NCBI GenBank assembly: GCA_034670305.1
Contig: JAXMNT010000001.1
Coordinates: 306,970-370,969, forward strand
Origin: Deltaproteobacteria bacterium
GTDB taxonomy: Bacteria; Myxococcota_A; Polyangia; Polyangiales; Houyiibacteriaceae
DNA: 64,000 bases
Direction of reading: 5' to 3'
How positions within the stretch are numbered: the stretch's first letter is position 1; each line of letters begins with the position of its first letter. The translations under genes were made by a program, and so were the position numbers. This document shows, in pieces, positions 100 through 64,000 of the stretch. The notes beneath the pieces are model-generated. The model worked only from the letters and a program-made list of their open reading frames with translations, was not told the DNA's origin and ran no database searches.

Positions 100-1203
100 A
101 TGGCCCTCTCTCTCGAAGAAGCGACCACCCTGATCGGCGAGGTCGTCGACCCCACGTTCGAGCGCACGCTCGCCGCCCTCGGCACGTTGTCCGACGTCGC
201 GATCGACGGCGCGCGCGTGAACTGCACCGTCCAGCTCAGCTCGCCCTCGGAACCGATCCGCGTGAAGGTGAAGGCCGCGATCGAAGCCAAGCTCGCGCCG
301 CACGGAGTGGACTTCGTCGAGGTGGAATGGAGAGTGCGCGTGCCGACGCGCGAGGCCGTGAGCGGCGATCCCATCCCGGACGTGCGCAACGTCATCCTGG
401 TGATGAGTGGCAAGGGCGGCGTCGGCAAGAGCACGGTCGCGACCAACCTCGCGCTCGCGCTGCGGCGCGCGGGCACGCGGGTCGGATTGCTCGACGCGGA
501 TCTCTACGGGCCGTCCCTGCCGACCATGCTCGGCATCCAGGGCCAGCCGAGCAGCCCCGACGGCAAACGCATCACGCCGCTGCAACGGTTCGGCCTGAAG
601 CTGATGAGCATCGGGTTTCTGCTCGAGGATCCGAAGCAGGCCGTCATCTGGCGCGGCCCGATGCTGCACGGTGCACTGCAGCAGTTCATCTCGGACGTGG
701 ACTGGGGCGAACTCGACTACCTCGTGATCGATCTCCCGCCGGGCACCGGCGACGTGGCGCTCACACTTGCGCAGAAGATGCGCGTGACCGGCGTCGTGAT
801 GGTCACCACCCCCCAAGAGGTCGCACTGGCCGACGTCTACAAGGGCGTCTCGATGTGCAAGAAGCTCAACCTACCGATCGTCGGTGTGGTGGAGAACATG
901 AGCTGGTTCGTGGACAGCGCCGGCGTGAAGCACGAGATCTTCGGCGCCGGCGGCGGCGCCAAGATCGCCGAGGCCTGCGACGCGCCTTTGCTCGGCCAAA
1001 TCCCCATGCACACCGATGTGCGCGAATGGGGCGACAAAGGCACGCCCATCGTCCAGGCCGACCCGGGCGGCACCGCCGGCCTCGCCTTCGCGGCCATCGC
1101 GGAAGCCTTGGCGGACCGCATCGCCGCCCTTCACTTCGCCGCCACCGAGAGCGAAAAGGCCCCGCGCGCAGACGGCCGCAAGCGACTGAAGATCCTGCGC
1201 TAG
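100..1203 (+). CDS. mrp: Mrp/NBP35 (ApbC) Fe-S cluster carrier ATPase with N-terminal DUF59-like domain
   Basis: SGKGGVGKST deviant Walker A, LLDADLYGPS, WRGPM, DLPPGTGD, VVENMS; ATG at 100. Confidence 0.93.
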   Translation: MALSLEEATTLIGEVVDPTFERTLAALGTLSDVAIDGARVNCTVQLSSPSEPIRVKVKAAIEAKLAPHGVDFVEVEWRVRVPTREAVSGDPIPDVRNVILVMSGKGGVGKSTVATNLALALRRAGTRVGLLDADLYGPSLPTMLGIQGQPSSPDGKRITPLQRFGLKLMSIGFLLEDPKQAVIWRGPMLHGALQQFISDVDWGELDYLVIDLPPGTGDVALTLAQKMRVTGVVMVTTPQEVALADVYKGVSMCKKLNLPIVGVVENMSWFVDSAGVKHEIFGAGGGAKIAEACDAPLLGQIPMHTDVREWGDKGTPIVQADPGGTAGLAFAAIAEALADRIAALHFAATESEKAPRADGRKRLKILR

Positions 1204-1420
1204 CAGACGGCCGAAGGCCGGCCTGCTCCCTTGCCCCTGCCCTTGCCCCTGCCCTTGCCCTTGGTTCGCTGGGGGGCATCGGCGTCGGCGTCGGCGTCGG
1301 CTTCGGCGTCGGCGTTGGCGTCGGCTCCGGCGTTGGCGTCGGCTTCGGCTCCGGCTTCGGCTTCGGCGTCGGATTCGTGTGATCGGGCACGGGCACGGGC
1401 ACGGGCACGGGCCCTTCGGC
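1200..1420. repeat. Composite intergenic repeat: CTAG + hairpin-like end + (CCCTTG/CCCCTG)n + (GGCGTC/GGCTTC)n + (GGGCAC)x4
   Basis: Directly visible between convergent genes; begins at the mrp TAG stop. Confidence 0.9.
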
Positions 1421-1450
1421 TTCAGCGCCGCCGCTTCGCTGCGTGCCGCC

Positions 1451-2314
1451 CTACTGCATCATCTCGCGCGCCAGCTCTGTCGCGGGGCCCAGCGGGCGGA
1501 CGGCGCGGATGAGGGCTTCGTCGCCGGCGAGGGCGCGCACGTCGAGGAGCGCTTTCTTGGCGTCTTCGTCCTTGCCCTGACTCGCGAAGGCGTGGGCCCG
1601 GACCACGCCGTAGCTGGCGGCGATGGCGGCGTCTTCCGGATCGTCGAACGCGTCGGCGCGGGAGAGGGCTTCTTCGACGTTCCCTTGGATCGCGAAGAGC
1701 AGCGCTTCGGTGGCGTTGAGCCAGCGCTCGACTTCGGCGTCGGCGGGGCGCTTGATCTGTGCGAGTGCGTCCTGCGCCCCTTCGAGGTCGCCGTGTTCGA
1801 GCCGGAGCGTCGCGAGCGCTTGCAGCACCCGCTCCCGCAGAGGCGAGACGAGGGCGTCGATCTCGATGCGCTCCACGTGATCGGCAGCCGCCCGCCACTC
1901 GCCGATCCCAGTGAGGGGGACGCTCGCGAAGAGCGCGACCTGCGCGTAGCCGGCCGGGGTGAGCCGGTCGGTCATCACCTTCAGCCGCGCGTCGAGCACA
2001 CGCATGGCTTCTTCCTGGTTGTCCGGTTGGGTCAGCCGGTAGCAGAGCAGGGCGGTGCCCCGGAGGTAGCGCGATCGCCGCGCTGCGCTGAACGCCAACA
2101 GACCTCCGATCCCCGCGCCGATCGCCGCCGCGATGTGGGGTTCGAACGCGAGCATGCAGAGGGCACCGGCGACGAGCGTGGTCAGTGCGGCGCCGATGAT
2201 CGCGCGCAGGACCATGGCCCACGAAAACATCGTGAGGGGCACCCCCCACGCCGCGCTGCGGGAGACGGGCGCAAGAAGGCCGATCGCGACGGCGGCCAAC
2301 GAGACGATCCACAT
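1451..2314 (-). CDS. Hypothetical membrane protein with C-terminal TPR-like helical region
   Basis: N-terminal hydrophobic helices, then helical repeats (LEHGDLEGAQDAL, IQGNVEEAL, SQGKDEDAKKAL); start uncertain (2314 or 2350). Confidence 0.7.
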   Translation of the reverse strand: MWIVSLAAVAIGLLAPVSRSAAWGVPLTMFSWAMVLRAIIGAALTTLVAGALCMLAFEPHIAAAIGAGIGGLLAFSAARRSRYLRGTALLCYRLTQPDNQEEAMRVLDARLKVMTDRLTPAGYAQVALFASVPLTGIGEWRAAADHVERIEIDALVSPLRERVLQALATLRLEHGDLEGAQDALAQIKRPADAEVERWLNATEALLFAIQGNVEEALSRADAFDDPEDAAIAASYGVVRAHAFASQGKDEDAKKALLDVRALAGDEALIRAVRPLGPATELAREMMQ

Positions 2315-2324
2315 GGACGGCGGT

Positions 2325-2873: not shown

Positions 2874-2889
2874 GGGCTCAGCGTACCAG

Positions 2890-3195
2890 GAAGCCGATGC
2901 CAGAGCCGAACCAAAGGCCTCTTGCCCTTGCCCCTGCCCGTGCCCTTGCCTTTGCCCGTGCCCGTGCCCGTGCCCGTGCCCGTGCCCTTGCCCTCCCTTG
3001 CCCTTCTTGGACCCCGAAGCCGATTCCGATTCCGAAGCCGAAGCCGAAGCCGAAGCCGATGCCGAAGCCGAAGCCGAAGCCGATGCCGATGCCGACGCCG
3101 ATGCCGAAGCCGCTGCCGAAGTCGAAGCCGAAGCCGAAGCCGATGCCGAAGCCGATGCCGATGCCGACACCGACGCCGAAGCCGACGCCGAGCCC
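2890..3195. repeat. Composite hexamer array (CTTGCC/CGTGCC)n followed by (GAAGCC/GATGCC)n
   Basis: Directly visible in the divergent intergenic region upstream of nadB. Confidence 0.9.
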
Positions 3196-3246
3196 GCGCC
3201 GAAAAGGCGTGGGACCGGATGGCAGGGGCGGGGTAGATTGCGGGGC

Positions 3247-4863: not shown

Positions 4864-4964
4864 GCGCCGGCCAGCGGCGTCGACTGCGGGCGCCGCGTCT
4901 AAGAAGGCGGGGCTCGTTTGCTGGATAGGGCGGCCGAACTCCGGCTTATGCGAAGCGCACTGAC

Positions 4965-5641: not shown

Positions 5642-5701
5642 TCGTTCCCATCCTCATTGGTTCCACGGCTCGTACGCCGGGGTTTCGATCGTGCGGACGC
5701 A

Positions 5702-10267: not shown

Positions 10268-10307
10268 TCGACTTGCGATTGTTTCCGCAATCGGACAGAG
10301 GCGCGCG

Positions 10308-11570: not shown

Positions 11571-11716
11571 GCCGAAGCAAAGCAGAGGCTCCCCTTGCCC
11601 TTGCCCGCGGTCCCCTTGCCCCTGCCCTTGCCCCTGCCCTTGCCCTCGGGTCGGAGTGAAGCCGACGCCGAAGCCGACGCCGAAGCCGAAGCCGAAGCCG
11701 AAGCCGAAGCCGAAGG
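11571..11716. repeat. Composite hexamer array (CCCTTG)n + (GAAGCC/GACGCC)n
   Basis: Directly visible immediately after the AOS stop. Confidence 0.9.
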
Positions 11717-11766: not shown

Positions 11767-12318
11767 ATGAGCCACCCGTTTTCCGGAGCTACGTTTGAAC
11801 GCGTCATCGCGATGCCCCGTGCAGAGCTCGAGCAGGTGATGCTCGAGGGAGCGACGCCGCAACGCGCGCATCTGGCCGGGTTCGAGTTTCGCGGCTTCAA
11901 CCCGCCGGCGTTCGCGAAGGCGCTTGGGTTTCAGAAGTTCATCAAGGGCTTCTTCGTCGACGCGGGCGATCAGCTGGCCGGATACAACCTCTTCGTCCGC
12001 GACGCGCGCAAAGGCCCTTCGGCGCCATGGGTCGCGAAGAAGGATGGTGGCCCATCCACCCGGCATGGCTTCTACGACGTGGTGCCGGTCAAGTCGGGCG
12101 GGCGCTACAGCGACTTCCCGAACGCGGTGCTGCTGGACTACGGGAGCGGGCGCAACAAACCGCTCGATCCGGAAGGGCGCATCCGCGACTTCCTCGTGCA
12201 GGTGGATCCGGACAACCCGGACCTCTACCTCGGCAAGGCGTTTCTCGACCTCGGGCTGACCCGCGTGTTCGCCAACTTCTTCATCATCGAGCGGCTGCGC
12301 GAAGCACCGCCTGGCTAA
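11767..12318 (+). CDS. Hypothetical protein
   Basis: Normal amino-acid composition after the repeat-derived N-terminus; motifs FRGFN, LLDYG, IRDFLVQV, YLGKA. Confidence 0.7.
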   Translation: MSHPFSGATFERVIAMPRAELEQVMLEGATPQRAHLAGFEFRGFNPPAFAKALGFQKFIKGFFVDAGDQLAGYNLFVRDARKGPSAPWVAKKDGGPSTRHGFYDVVPVKSGGRYSDFPNAVLLDYGSGRNKPLDPEGRIRDFLVQVDPDNPDLYLGKAFLDLGLTRVFANFFIIERLREAPPG

Positions 12319-12319
12319 C

Positions 12320-12657
12320 TGGCAGCCTGCCCCTTGCCCCTGCCCTTGCCTTTGCCCTTGCCCGCGGATCAGCGGTCAGATCCTGATCAGCGCGACGAGC
12401 ATCGCGACGACCTGCTTGAGGTGGGCGAGAGCCCGTTCGATATTTCTTGGTTCGCCGCCTACCTGGCCGGCGCCGCATTACAACCTCCTACGCGTCGCGC
12501 GGCTGCGGAGCTGCGCCGCGTAGCTGCCCGGCGGCTTCGTCCGCTGGGCATCAGGCTCCGATTCGCCGTCGCGAAAACACACGGCGTCCACGACGCGGGC
12601 AAGGGCACGGGCAAGGGCAACGGCAAGGGAGCAGGTCGCTTTTCAGCGACCTGCTAG
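12320..12657. mobile_element. Repeat-bounded element with about 40-bp imperfect inverted hexamer arms, terminal hairpin AGCAGGTCGCT-TTTC-AGCGACCTGCT and CTAG end
   Basis: Left arm 12327-12366 is the imperfect reverse complement of right arm 12594-12635; 12541-12657 recurs inverted at 63874-63996. Confidence 0.6.
12376..12477 (-). pseudogene. Possible C-terminal remnant of a four-helix-bundle (23S rRNA IVP/Avd-like) gene
   Basis: Minus strand reads *CGAGQVGGEPRNIERALAHLKQVVAMLVALIRI*, resembling the 4HB C-terminal helix (..ll.rivAMLt.L); short, judged by eye. Confidence 0.35.
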
Positions 12658-14470: not shown

Positions 14471-15481
14471 GTGTTTCCGCGGATCGTCCTGCTCTTGGGG
14501 GCTTCGGTGCTGGCTGCATTCGGCGCAGAGGCACGCGAAGGGGAGGGTGACCAAGGTGTCGACGCTGAAGTAGACGTCGCTGAGTCCGCCGCTGAATCCG
14601 ACGCCGTAGCCGAAGCCGATGCCGATGCCGAATCCGACGCCGATGGCGAAGCCGAAGCCGATGCCGAAGCCGAAGCCGCAGCCGAAGCCGATGCCGATGC
14701 CGATGCCGATGCCGATGCCGATGCCGATGCCGACTCTTTGGAGCGTGCTTGGTTGCCGGAGACGCGAGACTGCCGCCGGCGGGGGCGAAGGCGCTACTGC
14801 GATGGGCCGCGGATCATGCCCGCGCCGCAGGGCGCTGCGGCCGAGCGGGCCCGCACTTGGAACCTGAACACGCGCGACAGCTACTACGAGATCCTGGGCC
14901 ACGCGGCCGATCCCAACCTGCTCGCGAGCGTCCAGGGCACCGCCGAAGAGACGCTGCAGTGGCCGGTGCCGCGCGGGTTTCCTGGTCGCGGTTTCGGGTA
15001 CACGCGGCGGGCGCGCCTCGCCGACCGCATCCACCGGGGACTCGACATTCCGGCGGACGAAGGCGCCGACGTGTTGGCCGCGAACGCCGGCTTGGTGATC
15101 TACGCGGACAACCAGATGCGCGGGTACGGCAACTTGATCGTCCTGCTGCACCCCGACGACACCCGCACGCTCTACGCCCACCTCTTGGACGGGCAGGTGG
15201 CCGCGGGGGAGTTCGTGGAACGCGGTCGGTTGATCGGGCACGTCGGGGAGACCGGGCTCGCGCGCGCACCGCATCTGCACTTCGAGTATCGAAAGCGCGC
15301 GGTGCCCCGCAATCCGATTCGCCGGTTCGCGGACCGGCCCGATGCCGAGACCGTCGATGTGCTGCAACGTGAACAGGCGGCGCGCCGTCGCGAGAGCGAA
15401 GCCCGACTCGCGGAAGCCCGCGCCCGAGCGGAACGGAACGCTGCCCGCCGCGCCGCCCGAGCCGCTTCCCCAGGCAGCTGA
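14471..15481 (+). CDS. M23 family metallopeptidase with acidic Ala-Asp/Glu linker
   Basis: HRGLDI (HxxxD), GYGN, LYAHL, PHLHFE (HxH); signal peptide. Confidence 0.9.
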   Translation: MFPRIVLLLGASVLAAFGAEAREGEGDQGVDAEVDVAESAAESDAVAEADADAESDADGEAEADAEAEAAAEADADADADADADADADSLERAWLPETRDCRRRGRRRYCDGPRIMPAPQGAAAERARTWNLNTRDSYYEILGHAADPNLLASVQGTAEETLQWPVPRGFPGRGFGYTRRARLADRIHRGLDIPADEGADVLAANAGLVIYADNQMRGYGNLIVLLHPDDTRTLYAHLLDGQVAAGEFVERGRLIGHVGETGLARAPHLHFEYRKRAVPRNPIRRFADRPDAETVDVLQREQAARRRESEARLAEARARAERNAARRAARAASPGS

Positions 15482-18324: not shown

Positions 18325-18470
18325 GGGGTCGGCTTCGGGGTCGTCGGGTTCTGGTTCGGCTTCGGCGTCTGCTTCGGCTTCGGCTTCGGCATCGGGGTCG
18401 GCATCGGCATCGGCATCGCGGTCGGCATCGGCCTCGGCATCAGCATCGGCATCGCGGTCGGCCTCGGCGC
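18325..18470. repeat. Hexamer array (GGCTTC/GGCATC)n
   Basis: Directly visible after the radical SAM stop. Confidence 0.88.
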
Positions 18471-23559: not shown

Positions 23560-23830
23560 TGGCGGTCGCTGCTGTTGCGGTTGCGGTTGCTGTTGCTGTT
23601 GCTGCCACTGCCACTGCCACTGCCACTGCCACTGCCACTGCCACTGCCACTGCCACTGCCACTGCCACTGCCTCCGATCCGACACCGAAGCCGAAGCCGA
23701 AGCCGAAGCCGAAGCCGAAGCCGAAGCCGAAACCGAAACCGAAACCGAAGCCGACACGGACACCGACACCGACACCGACGACACCGACACGGACGACACC
23801 GACACCGACGACACCGACGCTGCCGAGGCC
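23560..23830. repeat. Composite hexamer array (GTTGCT/G)n, (GCCACT)n, (GCCGAA/ACCGAA)n, (ACCGAC)n
   Basis: Directly visible, intergenic. Confidence 0.92.
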
Positions 23831-23897
23831 CAATCCGACCTGACGTGCGATCGAAGCCTAAGGCTCGCCTGTCCCGGTTTGGGGTAGGCTCGCGGGG

Positions 23898-25307
23898 ATG
23901 ACTCGAACGCTCTGCAGGTGTGCTGCTCTCTCCCTCCTCCTCGCGCTCGCCGCCTGCGGCGACGACGACACGTCGGCCGCCGATGCCGGGACGCGCGATG
24001 CGCCTGGCCTGGACGCGCCTGGCGTGGACGCGCCTGGCACCGACGCGCCCGGCGTGGACGCGCCCGCTGTCGACGCACCTGGTGTCGACGCGTTCGTACC
24101 GCCCACGTTTGGGTGCGGGGTGCTTCCGCCTTCGACCGGCACGGAGATGCGCATCGGGCCGGACCGCGCCGACGAACTTCCGCAGATCGTGCGCGACGCG
24201 CCGACCGGCACCGTGATCCTGCTCGAAGACGGCACGTACCGCATCGGGCCCGATGGCGAAGGCAACCGGCGGCTTCAGTTCCACACCCCAGGCGTGACGC
24301 TTCGGTCCGTTTCCAACGACGCGACCACCGTGATCCTCGACGGCGAGTACCGGACCAACGAGACGATCTTCATCGACGCGGACGACGTGACCATCGCGCA
24401 CATCACGGTCACGCACGCGATCGATCACGGCATCCACGTCACCGGCGCGGCGCCCGGCAACACCGAACGCACCATCCTTCATGGATTGCGGATGATCGAC
24501 CACGGCGAACAGTTCGTGAAGGTGAACGCCAACGGAGAGCGCACGGCGTTTGCGGACGACGGCGTGCTCGCGTGTTCTCACTTCGAACTCACCGATGCGG
24601 GCCGACCGAACATCGAGCGCTCCCCGGGAGGCTGCTACACCGGCGGCATCGACACCCACGGTGGGCGGGGCTGGCACATCTACGGCAACCGGTTCGAGGA
24701 CATCTACTGCGCGGGCGAAGGGCTCGCCGAACACGCGATTCACTTCTGGAGCGCGAGCCGAGACACGCTCGTCGAGCACAACGTCATCGTGAACTGCGCG
24801 CGCGGGATCGGGTTCGGTCTGGTCGAGAACGGAGGGGAGCGCGACTACGCGGACAACCCGTACCCCGATGTCTCGACGTACATCGGCCACTACGACGGCA
24901 TCATCCGCGGCAACTCGATCTTCGCCGACATCGACTTCTACGACACCGGCATCGAGCTCGCTCAAGCGCGGGGCGCGCGGGTGCTTCACAACACGGTGGT
25001 CTCGAGCGCCGACGCGTCCGGGTTCTTCAGTTCGATCGACTACCGGTTCCCGAGCACCGACGTCGAGATCCGAAACAACCTCGTGCGGCGCATCACGCGG
25101 CGCGGCGACGCGAACGGCACGGTCGAGAACAACCTCGAAGCGGCGCCGCTCGATCTCTTCGTGGACCCCGCCGCGGGAGATCTGCATCTGCAGGCCAGCG
25201 CGGCCGCGGCGATCGACCAAGGCGTCGCCACCCCAGGGGCCGGCCTGGATCTCGACGGCGAGACCCGCGACGATGGCGCACCGGACCTCGGGGCGGACGA
25301 GCACTGA
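23898..25307 (+). CDS. Lipoprotein with DAPGV repeats and right-handed beta-helix domain
   Basis: LAAC lipobox; (DAPG[VT]) pentapeptide repeats; PbH1-type strands; DLHL..AIDQG..DLDG..PDLGADE C-terminus. Confidence 0.85.
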   Translation: MTRTLCRCAALSLLLALAACGDDDTSAADAGTRDAPGLDAPGVDAPGTDAPGVDAPAVDAPGVDAFVPPTFGCGVLPPSTGTEMRIGPDRADELPQIVRDAPTGTVILLEDGTYRIGPDGEGNRRLQFHTPGVTLRSVSNDATTVILDGEYRTNETIFIDADDVTIAHITVTHAIDHGIHVTGAAPGNTERTILHGLRMIDHGEQFVKVNANGERTAFADDGVLACSHFELTDAGRPNIERSPGGCYTGGIDTHGGRGWHIYGNRFEDIYCAGEGLAEHAIHFWSASRDTLVEHNVIVNCARGIGFGLVENGGERDYADNPYPDVSTYIGHYDGIIRGNSIFADIDFYDTGIELAQARGARVLHNTVVSSADASGFFSSIDYRFPSTDVEIRNNLVRRITRRGDANGTVENNLEAAPLDLFVDPAAGDLHLQASAAAAIDQGVATPGAGLDLDGETRDDGAPDLGADEH

Positions 25308-26194: not shown

Positions 26195-26385
26195 GCGGGC
26201 TGCCGTGGTCTCTGCCGGTCGCTGCCACTGCCTCTGCCGCTGACTCTGCCGCTGCCGCTGCCGCTGCCCGCTGCCGCTGCCGCTGCCACTGCCCGCTGCC
26301 GCTGCCGCTGCCGCTGCCACTGCCACTGCCACTGCCACTGTCACTGCCTGCTGCCGCTGCCGCCGCCACTGCCGCTGCCGGGAAC
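26195..26385. repeat. Hexamer array (GCCGCT/GCCACT)n
   Basis: Directly visible after the stop at 26192. Confidence 0.9.
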
Positions 26386-36106: not shown

Positions 36107-36190
36107 ACAAACACACGGGAGAAACGGTCCCAACACCAGTCGTCCACTTGCGCACACGGCGCTCTGGATGCAAACGGGACCTTCGGCCTC

Positions 36191-38023: not shown

Positions 38024-38086
38024 GTGGTTCGCCCAGGTCGCCAGACGCTGCAAAGCGCAGCGTCACGACCAGGAGACGAGGTAGTG

Positions 38087-38641
38087 ATGAGCAATGAAGA
38101 TGCGCCCCGTGGGGCCAAGACGGATTCCGAAGGCAAGCTGGCGGACGGCGCTCTCCTGGTCGAGGGTGGGGACAAGCGGGCAGCGACGGGCGGCGACGGC
38201 AAGGCCGAAGAGGCGCTCGACCTGCTCGACGAGATGTTCGACCTGATGGATCTGGACGTCGAGATCGACATTCGCGAAGACGACGAGCGGATCGTGCTCG
38301 ACGTGAGCGGGCGCGACGCAGGCCGGGTCATCGGCAAGAAGGGACAGACGCTCGATGCGCTTCAGTTCCTGCTGAACAAGATCCTCAACCGCTTCCCCGA
38401 AGGACGCCGACACATCGTCGTGGATTCTGGCGACTACCGGGACCGCCACGACAAGGGCCTCGAGACCCTGGCGCAGCGGGAAGCCGAGCGGGCGCTCGAA
38501 GAGGGCAAGACCGTGACACTGCAGCCGATGACACCGCGCGACCGCCGCGTGATCCACCTCTCGCTGGCCAAGTTCGAGGGGGTCACGACCGCCTCGCAGG
38601 GCCAGGGCGCCAAGCGCCGCATCCAGATCATCCCGAACTAG
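38087..38641 (+). CDS. jag: Jag/KhpB (EloR) KH-R3H RNA-binding protein
   Basis: IGKKGQTLDALQ (KH), PM..RDRRVIH (R3H); follows yidC. Confidence 0.92.
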   Translation: MSNEDAPRGAKTDSEGKLADGALLVEGGDKRAATGGDGKAEEALDLLDEMFDLMDLDVEIDIREDDERIVLDVSGRDAGRVIGKKGQTLDALQFLLNKILNRFPEGRRHIVVDSGDYRDRHDKGLETLAQREAERALEEGKTVTLQPMTPRDRRVIHLSLAKFEGVTTASQGQGAKRRIQIIPN

Positions 38642-38705
38642 CCAGCAGGGAGCGGAAAGCGACCTGCTCCCTTGCCCGTGCCCTTGCCCGTGCCCTTGCC
38701 CTTGG
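38638..38705. repeat. CTAG-anchored degenerate element end + (CCCTTG/CCCGTG)n
   Basis: CTAG..GAAAGCGACCTGCTCCCTTGCCCGTG matches the ends at 12657 and 63874. Confidence 0.8.
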
Positions 38706-38908
38706 GTTCAAGGGGCCTCTGGAGGGCGCCGGATATATCCAGACGCGTGCAGCCGACCGCTGCGGCCCTCGGTTCGTCGCTGATCAGCAACCGCAGCCGT
38801 GCATGTTCTCGATGCGACACTTCGCCGCTGCGGCAGAAGGCCGTGCAGACGAACGCCCGGGCGCACCGAACTCGGACCCGTGCGCGCGACTGCGTTACCA
38901 TCCGCCCG

Positions 38909-40201
38909 GTGTTCGAGCCGGGGCAACGCGTCGGAGAGTATGAGCTCGTCCGTGGTGTCGCCGCGGGCGGCATGGCGCACGTCTTCGTGGCGCGGCGGGA
39001 CGGCGACGATCGTCCTTTCGCGATGAAGGTGATCCACGAGCATCTGTCGACCGACTGGCAGGCGATGCGCTGGTTCGTGGACGAGGCGCTCATCTCGATC
39101 CGCATCCGGCACCCCAACGTGGTTCGGGTGGACGAGCTGGGGGAGCAGGATGGGCTCTACTACCTCGCGATGGAGTACGTGCACGGCTGCAGTCTGGCCG
39201 AGCTGATGGTGGTGCTCGGCCGACGTGGCCGTCGCATCGACCCGTGGATCTCCGCCTGGATCGCGGCGCGTGTCGCCGAGGGGCTGCACGCCGCGCACGA
39301 ACTGCGCGGAGACGATGGCGAACTGCTGAACGTGATCCACCGCGACGTGAGTCCGCAGAACATTCTGCTCAGCTCGATGGGTGAGGTGAAGCTGACCGAC
39401 TTCGGCATCGCGAAAGCGAAAGGGCGCGCGAGCCGCACGATGGCGGGCGAGCTGCGTGGCAAGTTCCGTTACATGGCGCCCGAACAGATCGTCGACCGGG
39501 ACGCACAGGACCGGCGCGTCGACATCTTCACGCTCGGTGTGGTGCTCTGGGAGCTGCTGACCCAGACCCGGCTGCACGCGAAGATGGACCACGTCGATCT
39601 GCTGGAGCGGTTGAAGAAGCCGGAAGTGGAGCGCCCGTCGTTGGTGCGCCCGGACGTGCCGCCCGCGCTCGACGGGGTCGTGCTCAACGCGGTCGCCGCG
39701 AGCCCGGCGGAGCGTCCAGAGACCGCTCAGGTGTTCCAGCGCGAACTCGACGAAGCCCTTTCGCTCGCCCGCATCGATCCGCAGGAAGCGCTGCGCGAGC
39801 TCATGCTCGAGGTGCTCGGCCAGCGGCTCCTCGAGAGCGCGCAGGCGCTGCCGGCGGATCTCGCCCATGCGATCGGGATCGAACACTTCGAACCGACCGA
39901 TCCGCGCGGGTTGGACTCGGGCGCTGCAGCGGCGGCGGCGGCCGCACAGATCGAGCGCGACGATCCGAGCGCCCCGTTCGTGTTCGAGGAGCCGCTGGTC
40001 GTCGAGTCTCCACCGGAGACCGCGGCGGCGCCCATGCCATCCACGCGCCCGGTCCAGCCGCTGCGAAGCGAACCCAGCCAGCGGGTGCGCACGAGCGTCG
40101 CGCCGCCGAGCACGAGCGCGGCGTGGCTCAGCGTGGCGCTTCTGCTCGGCGGCTTCTTTGTGATCGCTGTGCTCGCCGCGTGGCTCGTCCTCTCGGAGTA
40201 G
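38909..40201 (+). CDS. Hanks-type Ser/Thr kinase with C-terminal TM
   Basis: GGMAHV, AMK, HRDVSPQN, DFG, YMAPE. Confidence 0.93.
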   Translation: MFEPGQRVGEYELVRGVAAGGMAHVFVARRDGDDRPFAMKVIHEHLSTDWQAMRWFVDEALISIRIRHPNVVRVDELGEQDGLYYLAMEYVHGCSLAELMVVLGRRGRRIDPWISAWIAARVAEGLHAAHELRGDDGELLNVIHRDVSPQNILLSSMGEVKLTDFGIAKAKGRASRTMAGELRGKFRYMAPEQIVDRDAQDRRVDIFTLGVVLWELLTQTRLHAKMDHVDLLERLKKPEVERPSLVRPDVPPALDGVVLNAVAASPAERPETAQVFQRELDEALSLARIDPQEALRELMLEVLGQRLLESAQALPADLAHAIGIEHFEPTDPRGLDSGAAAAAAAAQIERDDPSAPFVFEEPLVVESPPETAAAPMPSTRPVQPLRSEPSQRVRTSVAPPSTSAAWLSVALLLGGFFVIAVLAAWLVLSE

Positions 40202-40204
40202 ACG

Positions 40205-40553
40205 GCCGAAGAAGCGGCAGGCGGAAGCGGAAGCGGAAGCGGAAGGCGGAAGCGGAAGGCGAAGCCGATGCCGAAGCCGAATCTGAAGCAGAAGCCGACT
40301 CCGACGGCGAATCCGAAGCAGAAGCCGAAGCAGAAGCAGAAGCAGAAGCCGAAGCCGAAGCCGAATCCGAAGGCGAATCCGAAGGCGAATCCGAATCCGA
40401 AGCCGACTCCGAATCCGACTCCGACGCAGAAGCCGAATCCGAATCCGAAGGCGAATCCGAATCCGAAGCCGACTCCGAAGCCGATGCACTCGAAGGCAGG
40501 GCAAGGGCAGGGGCAAGGGCAGGGGCAAGGGTAGCAGGGCTTGCGCCCTGCTA
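40205..40553. repeat. Composite hexamer array (GCGGAA/GCCGAA/TCCGAA)n + (GGCAAG/GGCAGG)n + hairpin TAGCAGGGC-TTGC-GCCCTGCTA
   Basis: Fills the gap between convergent genes; the hairpin includes the receiver gene stop. Confidence 0.9.
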
Positions 40554-41036
40554 ACGGATGTCGCGGAGGTGCCATTCGGTGATGGCCATGGTCACCCGCG
40601 CGATGTCGACTGGTTTTGCGAGCAGGCGGTCTCCGCCGTAGCGGCGCAACTCCGTCTCTGCGTACTGCTCGGCCCGCTGACTCACGAGCAGGATCGGAAC
40701 ATCCAGGGCGGGCAGGCTGCGCGCGAACGGTGGCAATGCTTTGTCGGGGACCCGCTGCCGCAGGATCCGCGTGAGGAGGATTCCGTCGAGCACCGATCCA
40801 GGCAAGTCGATGTCGAGAAGCACCGCCACCAGATCGGCGCCGTAGGTACGGATCAACTCGCAGGCTTCCCGATCGTGGTCCGCGCGCAGCAAGCGGTACG
40901 CGCGTCGCAGGTTGTCCCCTGCGACCTGCCAGCTCTGGTCGTCGACATCCACGTAGAGCACGAGCGCACGCCCATCCACTTCGGTGGCGGGCGGTGCGGT
41001 CCAGCCGGGCGCCGGCGATCGAACGTCAGTCGTCAT
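40551..41036 (-). CDS. Single-domain response regulator receiver
   Basis: VLYVDVDD, LLDIDLPG..DG, ILLVS, LLAKP. Confidence 0.8.
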   Translation of the reverse strand: MTTDVRSPAPGWTAPPATEVDGRALVLYVDVDDQSWQVAGDNLRRAYRLLRADHDREACELIRTYGADLVAVLLDIDLPGSVLDGILLTRILRQRVPDKALPPFARSLPALDVPILLVSQRAEQYAETELRRYGGDRLLAKPVDIARVTMAITEWHLRDIR

Positions 41037-42621
41037 GGTCGATGCCGATCGGGCGAATCGTCAGGAGCCGAACGGTCGCGGTACCGGCCTCTTCGTCGGG
41101 TTCGTCCATCTTGGTGCGGTCGTCTTCGTCCCAAAGCGGAAGCTCGACGCTCTCGGACATGGGCGCGTCGTCCGCGGCCTCCACGGGTTCTTCCGCGGGC
41201 GAGGGTCCGGAACTCATCCGGAGGGTCGGGGTGCCGGCTGGGATCCGAGACGAAGGCGGAAGGCCGTCTTCGATCAGCTTCTGGATCGACTTCGGCATGA
41301 CGATGTCCGGCATCGTCGCGTCCACCGGCAGGTCGACCACGGCGGTGACCTCGTCGTTGAATGCGGCCAAGGGCAATTCGGAAGAGGGCACCGGTTTGGT
41401 CACCTCCTCGAACGAGCCGACACGGGCGGCGGCGGCCCGCTCGAGCGCCTCGACGTCAACCGGTTTCGGCGGGACCGGGGTCTGCGGTCGGCTCGCCTCG
41501 CGCAAGGCCTCCGAGATGTCGACCGATTTGGTCTCGTCTTCGAAGACGCGCATGGGATCTGCCATGCGGGTCACCTCGTCGGTGACCGCGGGTCCGGGCG
41601 GGACCATGTCCTTCTTGAGGCCCTCCGATCCCAGCCGACCGATGGCCGTCTTGGACGCGAACACCGGCAAGCCGATCGCTTTGTCCAGGTCGGCTCGGCT
41701 TTCCGTGGCAGCTCCGGGCGGCGGCTCCATCGGGGGCGGCGGAAAACTTCGATCGACGACGGGCAACCCTTCGAGGACCCGCATCACGCCGCGCACCGCG
41801 TCCAGCAGGTCGTGCGTCTCCGATTCACCCGGACGCTGTTGCAGGAGTTTGGTGTAGATGCTGCGCGCGCCTTTGAGGTTGAGCATGCGCAACTGCATCG
41901 CGGCCGCCGGACGTCCGAACACCGGGATCGTTTTGGCCGACATCACATCGAGCCCCACGCCGCTGTCGCGTTCTTCGATCAAACGGGCCAGGAACTCGGC
42001 CACCGCCGGCGCATCGACATCGGTCGGGTGGGTTTCGGCGAACTCGAGCGCGCCGGCCCGCATCTTCTCGAGGCTCCGCTCACTGACGCCCCGTTGGAGT
42101 ACCGTGGCGAGCTCGGAGGAGCTCGCTTCGACCGGTTCTTCGGGCGCGCTCTGCGCATTGTCGAGAAGCATCCAGCGCAAGAGCGCGAGCCGCCGCTCGG
42201 CCCATATCGGAAGCGCGGACTCGCGGCGTCGATCTTCCAGGGTGGTCAACGCGACGGACGCCGCACCCCGAAGCAGGTGCCGGTGCGCCAACACGAACGG
42301 CTCTTCCGCGTGGGCGGGCACCGGCGCCAACAGTTCCCCCAGGACGGTGGCCCACTCGGCGGCGGGTCCACCGAAGTCGAGGCCGGCGAGGAGCGCGAGC
42401 GCTTCGACCAACATGCCTTCCCGGATCCACGCGTCGACGATTGGGAGCTCGAGTGCCGGGCCGGTGGCGGGCACCGATCCCTGCTCGAGCTCACGCAGGA
42501 GGGCGCGCGCCGGTCCGTGCGCTGGGTCCCGGGCGAGCGTGCCACGCAACACCAACTCCGCTTCGCGAACCGATCCGCGGGCGGCCAAGGTTCGGGCTGC
42601 ATCTACGGGCTCAACGGTCAT
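41026..42621 (-). CDS. Hypothetical helical/TPR-like protein with Pro/acidic low-complexity tail
   Basis: Long ORF in operon; TPR-like segments. Confidence 0.65.
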   Translation of the reverse strand: MTVEPVDAARTLAARGSVREAELVLRGTLARDPAHGPARALLRELEQGSVPATGPALELPIVDAWIREGMLVEALALLAGLDFGGPAAEWATVLGELLAPVPAHAEEPFVLAHRHLLRGAASVALTTLEDRRRESALPIWAERRLALLRWMLLDNAQSAPEEPVEASSSELATVLQRGVSERSLEKMRAGALEFAETHPTDVDAPAVAEFLARLIEERDSGVGLDVMSAKTIPVFGRPAAAMQLRMLNLKGARSIYTKLLQQRPGESETHDLLDAVRGVMRVLEGLPVVDRSFPPPPMEPPPGAATESRADLDKAIGLPVFASKTAIGRLGSEGLKKDMVPPGPAVTDEVTRMADPMRVFEDETKSVDISEALREASRPQTPVPPKPVDVEALERAAAARVGSFEEVTKPVPSSELPLAAFNDEVTAVVDLPVDATMPDIVMPKSIQKLIEDGLPPSSRIPAGTPTLRMSSGPSPAEEPVEAADDAPMSESVELPLWDEDDRTKMDEPDEEAGTATVRLLTIRPIGIDHDD

Positions 42622-42669
42622 CGTGTGCGTGCCGAAGGGTCGAACACCCCCCCGGGCGCGTCGAGCGTA

Positions 42670-43302
42670 TCAGCGTGCTCCGTACTGCACCAATCTCCGG
42701 GGACTTCCACTGGGCAGGGCGTACGCGAGTTGCCGCTGCAACGTCCAGCGTTCATCGCTCGGCGCCTCGTTCTGACCGAGCAGCACGAGGCAGACATCCG
42801 ACATGCCCACCGCGCGGTCGAGCCACTCGGCAGGCGCGAAGGTGGCGCGGGACAACGCCACATCGAACGTCGCGGCGTCTTCCGCCGGTGGTTCCTCGAC
42901 CCTCACCCGCGTGGCCAGCCCCAGCGCGCCCGCGGCGTGACGCATGAACGCGAGCCGTTTTCGACGCAGTTCGCGCAGCACGAACGTGCGGGATGGACTC
43001 AGCAGCGCGAGCGGGATGGACGGTGCGCCGGCACCGGCGCCCACGTCCACCCAGCGCTCCTTGCGCGCGTCGGGGGTCCCCCCGTCTTCCATGAAGAGGT
43101 GCAGGTGAAAGGCGTCGACGAACAGCACTTCGAGGAGCTGGTCGACCGACGCGCCGGCCACCAGATCGGTCTTTCGGCCCCACTGGCTCACGAGCTCCGC
43201 GAACCGAAGCAACCCCTCGCGCTGCTCGGCGGTCAACCGGAGCGCGGAGGGAATCATCGGGTCGAGGGCGGCGCCATGGCGTTTGGCGTCGAAGACGATC
43301 AC
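42670..43302 (-). CDS. rsmG: 16S rRNA m7G527 methyltransferase (RsmG/GidB family)
   Basis: W..KTDLV, VDVGAGAGAPSIPL, E.RRKRLAF, SRA. Confidence 0.82.
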   Translation of the reverse strand: MIVFDAKRHGAALDPMIPSALRLTAEQREGLLRFAELVSQWGRKTDLVAGASVDQLLEVLFVDAFHLHLFMEDGGTPDARKERWVDVGAGAGAPSIPLALLSPSRTFVLRELRRKRLAFMRHAAGALGLATRVRVEEPPAEDAATFDVALSRATFAPAEWLDRAVGMSDVCLVLLGQNEAPSDERWTLQRQLAYALPSGSPRRLVQYGAR

Positions 43303-49660: not shown

Positions 49661-51259
49661 TCAGATTTCGTCGGCGGCCAGGCCCGGTTCGCCATCGTCG
49701 GCGTTGCCGGTTCCCGCACCGCCTGCGCCTCCGGTCCCGCGGGTGCACGCGAAGCCGAGCAGGGTGCTCGTGGCGCCCGGACCCTGAACGACGCACACCG
49801 AAGGTCCGCCGCCACCGCCGCCGCCGCCGCCGCCGTTGCGTCCGGCCGCACCGTCGCCTCCGCTGCCGCCAGCGCTGCCGCCACCGGACTCACCGCCGGC
49901 CGCCCCGGCCGTCCCATCGACGCCCTGTCCCGGTTCCCCGGCGTCGCCGCCCGCGGCCCCGTTGCGGGTCAAGATCTCGATCTCCATCGCGGTGACGTCC
50001 GCGCGCACGAGCACCAGTCCGAGCGAGCCGCCACCACCGGGCCCGCCGGGTCCGGCTTCGCCGCCGCATCCGCCGGCGCCGCCGCCGCCGCCGCCTGCGC
50101 CGCTGCCCCCGGGATCGGCGCCACCGCCGCCACCGCCGCCACCACTGCCGCCGGCCGAGCCATCGGTACCGGACGTGCCATCGGCGGGCAGGTAGCCGAG
50201 CTCACTGACGGAACCGAATTCGACACCGCCCACTCCGGGGGTGGGCTCGGGCCCTTGGACGCCGTCTCCACCGTCTTCGCCAGGGTCGGCGCTGCCGAAC
50301 GAGTTCATGCCCGCCGGGCCGCCGGTCGCACCAGCCGAACCCGGTTCGCCCGCCCTCGGCGCCGTGAAGTTGAAGCCGCCCCCACCGCCGCTGCCACCAG
50401 CGGCGTCGCAGGGGCTCGCACCTCCGCTGCCACCCGGCGCGGCGCTCGTCCGGAATCCCCCCCCATTGGTGCCCGGATCCGGGTCGCCGCCGGGTTCGCC
50501 GTCGGCGCCATTTGCGGCATCCGCGCCGGCACGCCCTGCCTGCGCCCGCAGGTCGACGTCGGTGATCACGACATCGGCGGCATCGTGCACGAGCATCGCG
50601 ATGCTGGTCGCGCCGGCTGTGCCGCTGCGTCCCGCGTCGATGCGGAACTTGTCGACCGTCGCTCCGTCGACGTGGATCGTCATGCCGATGGCTTCGGTGC
50701 CGTCGATGAACGACTGACACCCAGCGAAGTCCTGCATGCCGAAGCCGTCGCAGAAGCTCCCGCGCAGATGCACGCGGACGGCCACGTCGACCGATTCGGC
50801 GTAGGTGCCCTCCAGCACACACACACCGTCGCCCGGCGAGGCGACTTCGAGCGCTCGGGTGACCGAGCCGGCGGGGTCCCCCATCGTGCCGAGGCCGGCG
50901 TCGCGTCCGTCGGGCGTGACGTAGATCTGACACGGGCCGCTGTCCGGCATGAACGCGTCGGTTCCCGCGTCCGCCGGCGCGTCGGTGCCGCCGTCCATCG
51001 GCCCCGCGTCCTGCCCTGCGTCGAAGGGCGCGTCGAACGGCGCGTCGAACGGCGTGTCCGGCAGGAAAGCATCCCGCGACGCGTCCAGCGGGTCGACCGC
51101 GTCCACGTTGGCGTCGACCAGCAACACATCGGCCCTGGAGGCGTCCGAGGCGCCGACGTTGAGCCCCGTGCGATCCACCGCGCACCCGGTGCCGATTCCA
51201 GAGCCCGCTGCCATCGCGAAACAGCAGAGGACCCGCGTCCATCGTGTCACTCCCAACAC
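49661..51259 (-). CDS. Gly-rich (PGRS-like) surface lipoprotein with DUF1565-like domain
   Basis: GTGC lipobox; DA repeats; IYVTPDG.D...GT..P; long GGxGG tracts; start GTG 51259 or 51250. Confidence 0.75.
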   Translation of the reverse strand: MLGVTRWTRVLCCFAMAAGSGIGTGCAVDRTGLNVGASDASRADVLLVDANVDAVDPLDASRDAFLPDTPFDAPFDAPFDAGQDAGPMDGGTDAPADAGTDAFMPDSGPCQIYVTPDGRDAGLGTMGDPAGSVTRALEVASPGDGVCVLEGTYAESVDVAVRVHLRGSFCDGFGMQDFAGCQSFIDGTEAIGMTIHVDGATVDKFRIDAGRSGTAGATSIAMLVHDAADVVITDVDLRAQAGRAGADAANGADGEPGGDPDPGTNGGGFRTSAAPGGSGGASPCDAAGGSGGGGGFNFTAPRAGEPGSAGATGGPAGMNSFGSADPGEDGGDGVQGPEPTPGVGGVEFGSVSELGYLPADGTSGTDGSAGGSGGGGGGGGADPGGSGAGGGGGGAGGCGGEAGPGGPGGGGSLGLVLVRADVTAMEIEILTRNGAAGGDAGEPGQGVDGTAGAAGGESGGGSAGGSGGDGAAGRNGGGGGGGGGGPSVCVVQGPGATSTLLGFACTRGTGGAGGAGTGNADDGEPGLAADEI

Positions 51260-59681: not shown

Positions 59682-59701
59682 CGCCCGGTGATCTCCGCCG
59701 G

Positions 59702-60691: not shown

Positions 60692-60701
60692 CCGCCTGAG
60701 T

Positions 60702-62267: not shown

Positions 62268-62287
62268 CTGCGCGTGGGTGTAGCAGG

Positions 62288-63826
62288 CTAGCGCGGGCGG
62301 CGGCGCCACAGGAGCATGAGGCCGAGGGCGCCGAGGCTCATGGCCAACGGAGACGGTTGGTCGTCGGCTTCGATGCGGCAGCCGCAGCCGCCGGTGTCTC
62401 CGGTGCCGACCGTGAAGCCGCCTGAGTCGCCGCCTGCGTCGCCGCCCAGGCCGCCGCCGTCGCTGCCGGGGCCGCCGTCGCTGCCGGGGCCGCCGTCGAT
62501 TCCGGTGCCCGGTCCACCGTCGCTGCCCGGTCCGCCGTCCACGCCGCCGCCCGGTCCGGCGTCGCGCATCGGGCCGCCGGGGCCTTCGTGTTCGAACGCG
62601 CCGCAGTCGGCCCGCGCGCCGGAGGGGCGCGGGTTGAAGTTGAAGTCTTCGAAGGGCACCGGTCCCGCGCTCACCGCGTCGACGCAGGGTGCGCTCGTCA
62701 TCAGCTCGTACTCTTCGTCGTCGGGGCGGGTGAACTGGGCTTCGGCCGAGGTGCCCGACCAGTTGTCCTCTTCGGTGAACGAGCCGGCGATCGCGACCGG
62801 CGCGCCGCCGGCGCTCGCGATCAAGTTGCCGTAGACCCGTCCGGTGCCGACCGTCGCGGTCACGCCGCCGCCGGTCGGTTCCACGATGGTGTTGAACCGG
62901 ACTTGGCCGTCCGAGGCGATGTTCACGCCCACCGAGGCGCCGACGACGACGTTGGTGTGCACGTCGGTCGAGAACGTCAGGTCGGCGTGTGCGGCGCCTG
63001 CGCCCGAACCCACATCGATGCCGGGGCCGGTGGTGTCGCGCATGCCGTTGATGAACAGGGCGCCGTTGAACGACCGGGCCATGATGCCGGGGCCGGTGCA
63101 GTCGGCGAACAAGTTCTCGTGTACCGAGTTCATGCCTTCGGTCAGCGTCCGCACGCGTACGCAAGGGCCGCCCGCGCCCTGGATGATGGTGAAGCTGATC
63201 TCGATGTTGCGAATGGTCGCCTGGTCGACGTCGGGGTCGGCCTGTCCGGCGTCCACGCCCACGCCGCCCATGTTGGCCATGCGCAGATCGAAGATGCTGA
63301 CCCGGTCGATCGTGTCCGTGCCATCGGGCTCGCGCACCTGGATGCCGTCGCCGGAGCTCGGCGACCCGGTGCCGTCGAACTCGAGTCCGACCACCGCGAT
63401 CGAGCTGCTCGATCCCGAGATGCGCAGGTACGCATCGACGCCATCCGCCGACGACTCGAAGCGCAGCGCGGGGGCGACGGTCGGTTCTTTGCCGTCGATG
63501 AACACGAAGCTCGAGTCCCGCAGGGTGAGTCCCACCGGCGTGCCGGCGCAGCCGCCAAGGCACGGGTCGATGATGGTGCTGCTGCCTTCTCCAGCCGCGC
63601 TTCGAATCACGATGGGCGAGGCCATCGAGCCCACGATGTCGTGCACGACGAGTGGACCGCGGCGCCCGGCCGCCAGTACGAGCGCGTCGCCCGCCGCGAC
63701 CCCTCCGCTGAAGCCCGGTCCGACATCCGCGACGTCGGCCGCGACCGCGATGTCGCGCGCCGAAGCGAACGAGGGGATCAGGAGAAAAGAGCTACAGACC
63801 AGGGCCCATCCAAAAGCGCGTTGCAT
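62288..63826 (-). CDS. Secreted beta-helix protein with DGG repeats and MYXO-CTERM-like tail
   Basis: Signal peptide; PbH1 strands; GPGSDG repeats; GGCGC..LLWRRR. Confidence 0.82.
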   Translation of the reverse strand: MQRAFGWALVCSSFLLIPSFASARDIAVAADVADVGPGFSGGVAAGDALVLAAGRRGPLVVHDIVGSMASPIVIRSAAGEGSSTIIDPCLGGCAGTPVGLTLRDSSFVFIDGKEPTVAPALRFESSADGVDAYLRISGSSSSIAVVGLEFDGTGSPSSGDGIQVREPDGTDTIDRVSIFDLRMANMGGVGVDAGQADPDVDQATIRNIEISFTIIQGAGGPCVRVRTLTEGMNSVHENLFADCTGPGIMARSFNGALFINGMRDTTGPGIDVGSGAGAAHADLTFSTDVHTNVVVGASVGVNIASDGQVRFNTIVEPTGGGVTATVGTGRVYGNLIASAGGAPVAIAGSFTEEDNWSGTSAEAQFTRPDDEEYELMTSAPCVDAVSAGPVPFEDFNFNPRPSGARADCGAFEHEGPGGPMRDAGPGGGVDGGPGSDGGPGTGIDGGPGSDGGPGSDGGGLGGDAGGDSGGFTVGTGDTGGCGCRIEADDQPSPLAMSLGALGLMLLWRRRPR

Positions 63827-63873
63827 GCGGCGAGTCTACACCGCCGCGCAGCCCGCTCGCCGAGGAAGTTCCC

Positions 63874-64000
63874 CTAGCAGGTCGCTGAAAAGCGACCTGC
63901 TCCCTTGCCGTTGCCCTTGCCCGTGCCCTTGCCCGCGTCGTGGACGCCGTGTGTTTCGCGACGGCGAGGCGCGAATCGGAGCGCGATGCCCAGCGGGCGA
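63874..64000. mobile_element. Second, inverted copy of the end of the 12541-12657 element; may extend past the window edge
   Basis: CTAGCAGGTCGCTGAAAAGCGACCTGCTCCCTTGCCGTTGCCCTTGCCCGTGCCCTTGCCCGCGTCGTGGACGCCGTGTGTTT is the exact reverse complement of the right end at 12657. Confidence 0.75.

Follow-up and report, generated by a model that had tools for sequence, protein, structure and literature searches.

We analysed 64,000 nucleotides of a Polyangiales genome (Deltaproteobacteria bacterium, assembly GCA_034670305.1, contig JAXMNT010000001.1, positions 306,970 to 370,969), referred to here as the window, in which arrays of tandem hexanucleotides are dispersed among genes. We relate these arrays to two kinds of array-bearing DNA found in the same genome: an IS5-like element with CCCTTG-type arms, and ~0.6-kb cassettes encoding a four-helix-bundle protein of the family PF05635. 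The window is the final 64 kb of contig C1, reaching the contig end, in an assembly (G000) of 7.9 Mb, 105 contigs and 69% G+C. The genes beside the arrays are ordinary housekeeping genes, among them rnpA-yidC-jag, gidB, hisD, cysS, a NadB-like oxidase gene, fatty-acid synthesis genes and kinase genes. The rnpA-yidC-jag cluster with gidB nearby (35675–43302) is a typical neighbourhood of a replication origin.

Hexamer arrays in the window and the genome

All 12 places at which the initial annotation had marked arrays are recovered as period-6 arrays by Tandem Repeats Finder (TRF) and were also read in the sequence. Matches to four CCCNTG units with at most one mismatch number 31 in the window, compared to 0 in each of 100 dinucleotide shuffles, and matches to four CCGANN units followed by CCGA, again with at most one mismatch, number 94, compared to 0 in 100 dinucleotide-preserving shuffles; by TRF and shuffling alike, the window arrays are simple sequence repeats (SSRs), that is, head-to-tail copies of a 1–9-nt unit beyond chance. 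They are imperfect (73–100% matches) and contain mixed units, most of which share the GCC register that had been noticed at the outset (TGCTGT and CCGACA are the window exceptions), as do 1,239 of the 1,539 arrays in the genome-wide set (TRF, period 6, at least 4 copies). Four sequencing runs of one study contain this stretch, and two others (X5, X6) carry a relative that is ~93–94% identical; in runs X1, X3, X5 and X6, short contigs end at every array, with none bridging. Similar arrays are present in G012, a genome of a different genus assembled as one contig, and 14 of the 18 genera of the family have them, which argues that we are not dealing with an artefact of this assembly alone.

The joining of a CCCTTG block to a GAAGCC/GGCTTC-type block, another of the early observations, holds at four window loci (1228–1412, 2921–3191, 11592–11715 and 40211–40531). 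The first is preceded by a GC hairpin (1201–1227, plus strand; −15.3 kcal/mol, z −3.1) that begins at the TAG stop (1201–1203) of an Mrp/NUBPL-type ATPase gene (PF10609). It continues as a gene-less repeat hairpin on the same strand, consisting of (CCCYTG)6 (1228–1263), a (GGCKTC)16 core (1275–1372) and an inverted (GGGCAC)5 (1384–1412), which occupies the entire gap between two convergent genes; in the single-strand fold of 1201–1415, the inverted arms pair around the core, with an overall z of only −1.1. Two further plus-strand composites consist of 14.5 CCCTTG-class and 30 GCCGAA-class units (2921–3005 and 3014–3191), in the divergent gap upstream of an L-aspartate oxidase-like gene, and of 9 CCCTTG-class and 10 GAAGCC units (11592–11646 and 11658–11715), 22 nt past the stop of an aminotransferase gene. 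The fourth composite (40211–40556, minus strand; TRF arrays 40211–40484 and 40495–40531) runs from the TAG stop of a response-regulator gene (40551–40553) through a hairpin (40553–40532; fold z −5.2), (CCCYTG)6, 43 GGCTTC-type units and (GCTTCC)7, and its array end lies 10 nt from the TAG stop of a convergent kinase gene (40199–40201).

A plus-strand module at 38639–38704 comprises the TAG stop of a KhpB/Jag-like gene (38639–38641), a hairpin (38644–38668; fold z −3.75) and (CCCKTG)6 (38669–38704), with no long array behind it. Solo arrays on the minus strand are of the GCCGAW class (18356–18469, TCGGCA/TCGGCT on the plus strand), flanked by genes for a radical-SAM protein and an ECF sigma factor, and of the CAGCGG class (26220–26380, 26 copies of CGCTGC on the plus strand), in a tandem intergenic gap. 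Four adjoining arrays at 23570–23839 follow one another on the minus strand as TGTCGG-type, (CTTCGG)12, (CAGTGG)12 and (CAGCAA)6. A plus-strand array of 23 GCCGAT/GCCGAA units (14598–14733) is the one departure from the intergenic position that had been proposed for nearly all arrays and that holds for 11 of the 12 window loci: read in frame as GCC GAT, it encodes an acidic Ala-Asp/Glu linker that joins the signal peptide of a peptidase to its M23 domain (PF01551, residues 187–282; open reading frame (ORF) 14471–15481). The three other loci are described below with the IS5-like element. Every window array is gene-less, the window contains no intact four-helix-bundle cassette, and neither an Rfam family at gathering scores nor an rRNA was found in it.

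The window also holds repeats of other periods. Long imperfect CCG/CGC triplet runs at 49806–49886 and 50059–50153 (27 and 32 copies) are contained in overlapping long open frames, where the GC skew of the region is strongly negative. Tandem repeats of 15/45 nt (23996–24092) in ORF 23898–25307 (plus strand) and of 42 nt (62437–62579) in ORF 62288–63826 (minus strand), both ORFs without a Pfam match, probably belong to repeat-containing proteins.

Across the genome, the 1,539 arrays cover 157 kb, or 2% of the DNA, at 194 arrays per Mb. They form 1,186 loci, 1,001 of them intergenic, and make up 12.7% of intergenic DNA; these and all other gap and stop counts depend on 5,947 genes from our own rough codon-usage gene caller. 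Array loci number 331 for 729 convergent gaps (about 45%), 387 for 2,577 tandem gaps (15%) and 88 for 974 divergent gaps (9%). The CCCTTG/CCCGTG class comprises 546 short arrays and GCCGAA with its one-letter variants 582 long ones, and the smaller classes are GGAAGC/GCTTCC (89 arrays) and the CAGCGG group (about 80). The early impression that many arrays begin right after a stop codon holds in the window at the stops 1201–1203, 38639–38641, 40199–40201 and 40551–40553. Counted as blocks, about 829 in the genome are of non-CCCTTG type, and for 201 of them the distance from a called stop to the block start is at most 15 nt.

Several of these properties are what ordinary hexanucleotide microsatellites would show, if a lineage-specific bias of replication or repair expanded 6-nt seeds in dispensable DNA and the mobile elements merely carried such seeds or occupied the same gaps. 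Array lengths span 4 to about 60 units, and the higher-order 12- and 18-nt patterns are of the kind that slippage and unequal exchange typically leave; array orientation in tandem gaps is independent of gene direction (50 versus 84 and 64 versus 62); and arrays lie nearer to the upstream stop (median 36 nt) than to the downstream start (median 115 nt), which the sparing of promoters would predict. That 14 of 18 genera have period-6 arrays, built from many different units, points the same way, as do the in-frame array tolerated within the M23 peptidase and the lack of common flanks around solo arrays described below. We nevertheless consider this explanation improbable, although the strongest of the three rivals that we weigh, for reasons that lie in the structure of the two array-bearing elements.

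CCCTTG arms and the IS5-like element

CCCTTG-class arrays are narrowly sized, with 341 of 634 in the genome having exactly 6 units, and many form the arms of an IS5-like element. By blastn, the genome contains 130 left and 120 right ends of this element, including 35 pairs that delimit 214–716 bp and one that delimits 1,563 bp, with 14 matches of at least 280 bp. The order of parts is (C)TAG, a palindromic hairpin, (CCCTTG)6, a core, (GGGCAA)5.5, a hairpin and CTAG. The conserved inverted termini (CAGGYYGCTGAA...) occur in dispersed copies in both orientations, as in insertion sequences (IS) and miniature inverted-repeat transposable elements (MITEs), and (C)TAG stands at both termini of the copies read by eye. 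One order of variant units within the arms is repeated across the about 130 left and 120 right ends, and the arms have therefore spread by copying, not by local slippage. The restriction of CCCTTG arrays to 5–6 units, this shared unit order and the enrichment of TAG at module starts reported below all count against a pure microsatellite origin.

Longer copies carry a PF05635 four-helix-bundle gene on one strand and the C-terminus of a DDE transposase (PF01609, PF13751) on the other. Of the genes that the initial annotation had suggested for longer copies, an IS5-type transposase and an Avd-like four-helix-bundle gene were thus found, and HUH/RAYT and reverse transcriptase genes were not. What the assembly contains of the transposase is a single frame of 165 aa, 31 remnants and, where contigs begin, its last 45–53 residues. 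Within the family it was detected in this genome alone, as those remnants, and a 363-aa homologue, 60% identical to the fragment, is encoded in a genome of another family (G027).

The window contains parts of three such elements or arms. At 12303–12657 (plus strand) lies an internally deleted, MITE-like copy, recognized by blastn, sequence, the Pfam C-termini and a hairpin fold z of −8: a cut left hairpin, (CCCTTG)6 (12326–12363), gene remnants, (GGGCAA)5.5 (12597–12629) and the right hairpin (12630–12655). The remnants are the last ~22 codons of a four-helix-bundle gene (12372–12440, minus strand), the sole such remnant in the window, and, on the plus strand, a piece of the C-terminal part of the DDE transposase. 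Both convergent neighbours have stops (TAA 12316–12318; CTA 12654–12656) that abut or overlap the termini of this copy. At the contig end (63875–64000, plus strand), a reversed right end of the element consists of TAG, a hairpin (63876–63901; z −7.5), (CCCTTG)5.5 (63902–63934) and element interior. An arm of 5.5 GGGCAC/GGGCAA units on the plus strand (16–48, read as minus-strand CCCTTG class) closes a GGCTTC-type array that enters from upstream of the window (arrays at C1:306722–306821 onward).

The position of these modules relative to genes is distinctive. Of 66 A-type ends, 53 have a co-oriented gene stop upstream, which is TAG in 51 cases. Another 154 CCCTTG arrays are preceded by a hairpin; in 107 of these, a co-oriented stop lies no more than 120 nt upstream (median 23 nt), TAG in 77 of the 107, whereas only 23 are in the opposite sense to the upstream gene, and the TAG share in the stop usage of the genome is 29%. 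Elements of the IS5 group have a CTAG-type target, which the (C)TAG termini fit. An element that lands on (C)TAG would therefore be placed right behind TAG stop codons.

The polarity of the modules could alternatively reflect a function for the host, with the hairpin plus (CCCUUG)n serving as a terminator or roadblock, and the long arrays being bound by four-helix-bundle proteins, which might for instance insulate convergent genes from each other. Beyond the ratio of 107 to 23, this explanation can draw on the stability of the hairpins (fold z about −3 to −8 for those at 1201, 38644, 40532, 12630 and 63876 in the window), on the 5–6 units that CCCTTG arrays have even outside the IS5-like element, and on the occupation of about 45% of convergent gaps. 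The strand opposite CCCTTG, (GGGCAA/GGGCAC)5-6, also fits, at the level of sequence, a G-quadruplex motif of the G3N3 kind (at least four GGG runs, 1–7 nt apart). Against it, ordinary hairpin-plus-T-run terminators are also present in the genome, and the TAG enrichment and identical unit order favour copying over local selection. Furthermore, arrays around yidC are not conserved at orthologous sites: in five relatives from other genera, the yidC region contains hexamer arrays of other units in other places. The GTDB set includes no genome of the same genus. We regard a host function as still less probable than pure slippage, even considering the protein-specific units discussed in the next section.

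A palindromic unit (TTCTTGGGGGCACAGCCCCCAAGAA) and its relatives, with ~130-nt GC-rich modules, are nested one to two times in longer CCCTTG-armed copies (contigs C9:103770–104170, C38 and C1:298600–298900) and constitute a second small repeat family.

Four-helix-bundle cassettes and the units of their arrays

A profile search of the genome for PF05635 yielded 47 matches, 39 of them over the cut-off, and tblastn identified 38 cassette loci, 32 intact, that fall into three near-identical subfamilies, a, b and c. Each cassette spans ~0.6 kb and consists of an array, a conserved ~220-nt leader, a ~104-codon four-helix-bundle gene, a GC hairpin and a further array; those examined are located between protein-coding genes. 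An array ends 150–400 bp upstream of 26 of the 32 intact genes, compared to 154 of 5,930 other called genes, and 31 of the 32 have an array either upstream or within 100 nt downstream, compared to 12% of other genes. Array units differ between subfamilies and are fixed in orientation: GCTTCC-type in a (upstream 7/8, downstream 4/8), CAGCGG-type upstream (10/12) and GGCTTC downstream (8/12) in b, and GAAGCC-type upstream (10/12) in c.

The same combinations recur among gene-less arrays. The [CCCTTG][GAAGCC] composite occurs 112 times genome-wide in the order and orientation found at cassettes, and CAGCGG arrays adjoining GGCTTC keep the relative orientation of the cassette in 21 of 24 cases. 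Within the window, 2921–3191 repeats the order and orientation seen upstream of a subfamily-c cassette on contig C67; 11592–11715, a CCCTTG arm followed by a GAAGCC array, has the 5' flank layout of c; 40211–40556 has the [GGCTTC][GCTTCC] order found upstream of a subfamily-a cassette on contig C86; and 23570–23839 corresponds to the [GGCTTC][CAGCGG-type] layout known upstream of subfamily-b cassettes, lacking leader and gene.

The predicted protein is a four-helix bundle (predicted local distance difference test score (pLDDT) 94) that matches the solved structures 2GSC and 2RLD with template-modelling (TM) scores of 0.83–0.85, and 2GSC also in a sequence profile comparison (E 9e-12). Both of these entries contain five chains, which, together with an own unit for each protein subfamily, would suit protein binding sites of host use as well as the recognition of units by a selfish element. 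The leader has no Rfam match in three cassette loci at E up to 1. Its closing stem is intact in all 21 copies compared, which come from two genera, and three of its pairs are changed on both sides; RNAalifold on a MAFFT alignment recovered 12 pairs, with the inner hairpins misaligned. The motif TTGAC, invariant in 21 of 21 leaders (alignment columns 118-122/188-196), comes straight after a covarying stem and may represent a −35 box or some recognition site.

The next closest structural relatives of the model are Avd proteins of diversity-generating retroelements (DGRs; 8UB7, 4DWL), with TM 0.71–0.73 at 8–12% sequence identity. This likeness to a protein solved within DGR ribonucleoproteins, the conserved folded leader beside the array and the presence of 3 RVT_1 genes in the genome would be compatible with a reverse transcriptase or telomerase-like activity that adds units from an RNA template with the Avd-like protein as partner, and templated repeat addition was among the mechanisms first proposed for the arrays. 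We found no evidence supporting it. Judged by coordinates and distance only, no RVT_1 gene adjoins a cassette, the nearest being 5.2 kb away on contig C67; 3 such genes stand against 38 cassettes; the arrays, imperfect (73–100%) and of mixed units, are unlike copies of a single template; and no template/variable repeat pair was seen, in the course of work that included no search aimed at such pairs. This is by far the least probable of the explanations considered.

Comparison with other genera extends the link between gene and array. Of the 18 genera of the family, 14 have arrays matching CCGANN (9,647 matches in G000, 1,094 in G012 and 623 in G017), a pattern that misses the array units of the four-helix-bundle genes of the small-genome genus. 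In G012, a period-6 array is present at 18 of 20 PF05635 loci, mostly 220–330 bp upstream of the gene, compared to 1 of 20 control positions 50 kb away. Of 24 genes read in this genome, 21 have an upstream array, and the unit follows the subfamily in 21 of 21; the remaining three are one gene without an array (L158), one without an array and outside the tree (L169), and one misread frame. Genes with TCAGTC arrays form a single clade (7/7; SH-aLRT 100 in a quick tree of 52 rows), and matches to four TCAGTC units number 391 in G012, which carries that subfamily, 0 in G000, 0 in G013 and 15 in G017. At least 13 of the 19 listed TCAGTC array loci in G012 lie away from known cassettes. Flanking short-unit arrays were also present at 10 of 10 PF05635 loci in G017, G013, G008, G002 and G151. 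Cassette copies are paralogues and not independent events, and therefore such statistics, the 26 of 32 genes with upstream arrays and the TCAGTC clade among them, overstate the association.

Four-helix-bundle genes frequently occur as convergent pairs ~50–100 bp apart, each gene with its own upstream array (L151, L152 and L156 in G012, L234 in G013, L236 in G002 and L238 in G151); the G012 pairs combine a TCAGTC-type gene with a GCCGAW-type one.

The comparison of filled and empty sites that had been called for yielded one such case: a ~1.1-kb array plus cassette lies between two convergent genes in G012, and the same genes are ~10 bp apart, without a hexamer array, in its congener G138.

These comparisons are difficult to accommodate if arrays arose by slippage alone. 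Nearly all arrays are restricted to a few unit types borne by resident cassettes, the units differ by genome and correspond to the gene subfamilies resident there, and both the place and the orientation of the array upstream of the leader are fixed in two genera. The initial conclusion that these are not independent microsatellites of random make-up is thereby sustained, in that they constitute a structured family, linked to mobile DNA, in which unit type tracks gene subfamily. More tentatively, each four-helix-bundle subfamily may read its own hexamer unit, with a pentameric ring seated on five or six tandem units of DNA or RNA, in which case gene, leader and cognate array would together represent a selfish element of a new class, able to move from array to array, to seed arrays and to maintain them while lacking its own transposase. 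We hold this to be doubtful.

Origin of the arrays and relation to described elements

We propose, with a probability of about one in two, that two related kinds of selfish DNA have the hexamer arrays as their repeat arms, and that most of these arrays have been left without a gene-bearing core. The first kind would be the hairpin-(CCCTTG)5-6 ... (GGGCAA)5-6-hairpin element, with long copies bearing the IS5-type DDE transposase and the four-helix-bundle gene, short MITE-like copies, and a (C)TAG target; in some copies, of which 1201–1412 would be one, the core may be a long GCCGAA-type array. The second kind would be the ~0.6-kb cassettes of the three subfamilies, with units GCTTCC (a), CAGCGG upstream and GGCTTC downstream (b), and GAAGCC (c). 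Recombination between arrays of identical unit could insert or remove the core and leave clean solo arrays, which would then lengthen, shorten and diverge through slippage and unequal exchange, and would survive where they are harmless, mostly behind stop codons and between convergent genes.

A substantial set of observations weighs against this proposal. Non-CCCTTG blocks outnumber cassettes about twenty to one (about 829 versus 38), and only 178 of the 829 touch a CCCTTG arm. The flanks of 680 oriented long arrays have no sequence in common except neighbouring arrays, and no core relic was found on any solo array. We rejected the possibility that solo arrays derive from decayed cassettes and retain relics of the leader, as coverage of leader and gene is flat at 15–34 copies. 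Given the lack of common flanks and leader fragments that are no commoner than genes, most arrays, including all those in the window, are not demonstrable as copies of one element. Where gene-less G012 arrays were sought in G138 and G144, synteny was lost or the flanking gene was multi-copy, and no empty site was seen. The hairpins before CCCTTG arrays outside the IS5-like element vary in sequence from locus to locus, and simple copying of one element is therefore insufficient as an explanation. Finally, the transposase body is missing from the G000 assembly, in which many contigs, including the one that bears the window, end within an IS5-like element, and the G027 homologue lacks CCCTTG-type arms. 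Because the gene-less arrays have neither common flanks nor leader relics, outnumber the cassettes and rarely touch a CCCTTG arm, our proposal rests on correlation. The notion of a common origin, such as an element family, as first put forward, survives in part: the genome-wide scan and flank clustering resolve two classes tied to mobile DNA, with IS ends common to CCCTTG arms and a leader common to cassette arrays, and the long solo arrays share neither.

Among known systems, the nearest is the ORF-bearing intervening sequence (IVS) of 23S rRNA with an S23p/PF05635 gene, as presented in the available part of its description, where the 428-nt Coxiella IVS is called a selfish element (PMC4990558). 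Our cassettes resemble it in encoding a PF05635 protein close to 2GSC and 2RLD, in being a few hundred bases long within pairable repeats, and in lacking a recognisable mobility enzyme of their own. They differ in residing between protein-coding genes rather than in rRNA, at least those examined, in being multi-copy (38), in having the ~220-nt leader and long hexamer arrays that are mostly direct rather than inverted, and in being accompanied by hundreds of gene-less arrays.

The CCCTTG-armed element shares with IS5 elements and their MITEs a dispersed distribution, matching inverted ends, internally deleted copies of 214–716 bp, the PF01609/PF13751 C-terminus and the 363-aa homologue in G027. 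It departs from them in the six tandem hexamers plus palindromic hairpin at each end, the four-helix-bundle passenger, and the points already raised on the full-length copy and the armless homologue. Repetitive extragenic palindromes (REPs) and bacterial interspersed mosaic elements, mobilized by REP-associated tyrosine transposases (RAYTs), likewise comprise hundreds of short GC-rich palindromes right behind stops, in mosaic with other short motifs. REP elements begin with GTAG, whereas the hairpins here begin with TAG and vary by locus. A link of the arrays to HUH/RAYT genes, which had been suggested, was not borne out: of 11 Y1_Tnp (PF01797) genes, one has a long non-CCCTTG array within 1.5 kb and 3 have a CCCTTG array, and none is flanked by the modules. 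The Y1_Tnp genes themselves (C1:179700–180720 and 10 further loci; open frames of 233–249 aa) form a separate IS200-like family unrelated to the arrays, the copy read having its own ~50-nt inverted ends (TTGCCAATGCAGCATGCTGCTGCACC...).

Bacterial SSRs with units of 5–9 nt, also known as variable-number tandem repeats, are used for multilocus typing (MLVA) of Xanthomonas and others. The arrays are like these in their short head-to-tail units, mostly intergenic location and copy numbers that vary between loci, and unlike them in their density (194 per Mb, about 13% of intergenic DNA), restricted units, fixed composite order and orientation, and link to a gene family. The cassettes, for their part, share a four-helix-bundle fold with the Avd proteins of DGRs, from which the low sequence identity and the missing reverse transcriptase neighbour set them apart. 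In the literature covered, with subscription journals and supplements outside its scope and including the available parts of PMC12699852 and PMC8700078, neither these arrays nor array-flanked four-helix-bundle cassettes are described.

Short tandem repeats between bacterial genes are usually taken as slippage noise or typing markers. In this genome, the types of unit, with their order and orientation, correspond to the PF05635 subfamilies present, a link that extends to several genera, amounts to a testable pairing of protein and repeat and offers a candidate route for the origin of whole classes of intergenic repeats. The arrays also provide a case of repeats placed precisely at stop codons and, in one instance, taken up as a protein linker. 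To our knowledge, the PF05635 "23S rRNA intervening-sequence protein" family is represented by two crystal structures and has no known function. If the recognition of cognate units by these proteins proves true, it would give this orphan family a function and would account for much of the so far unexplained short tandem repeat DNA between bacterial genes.

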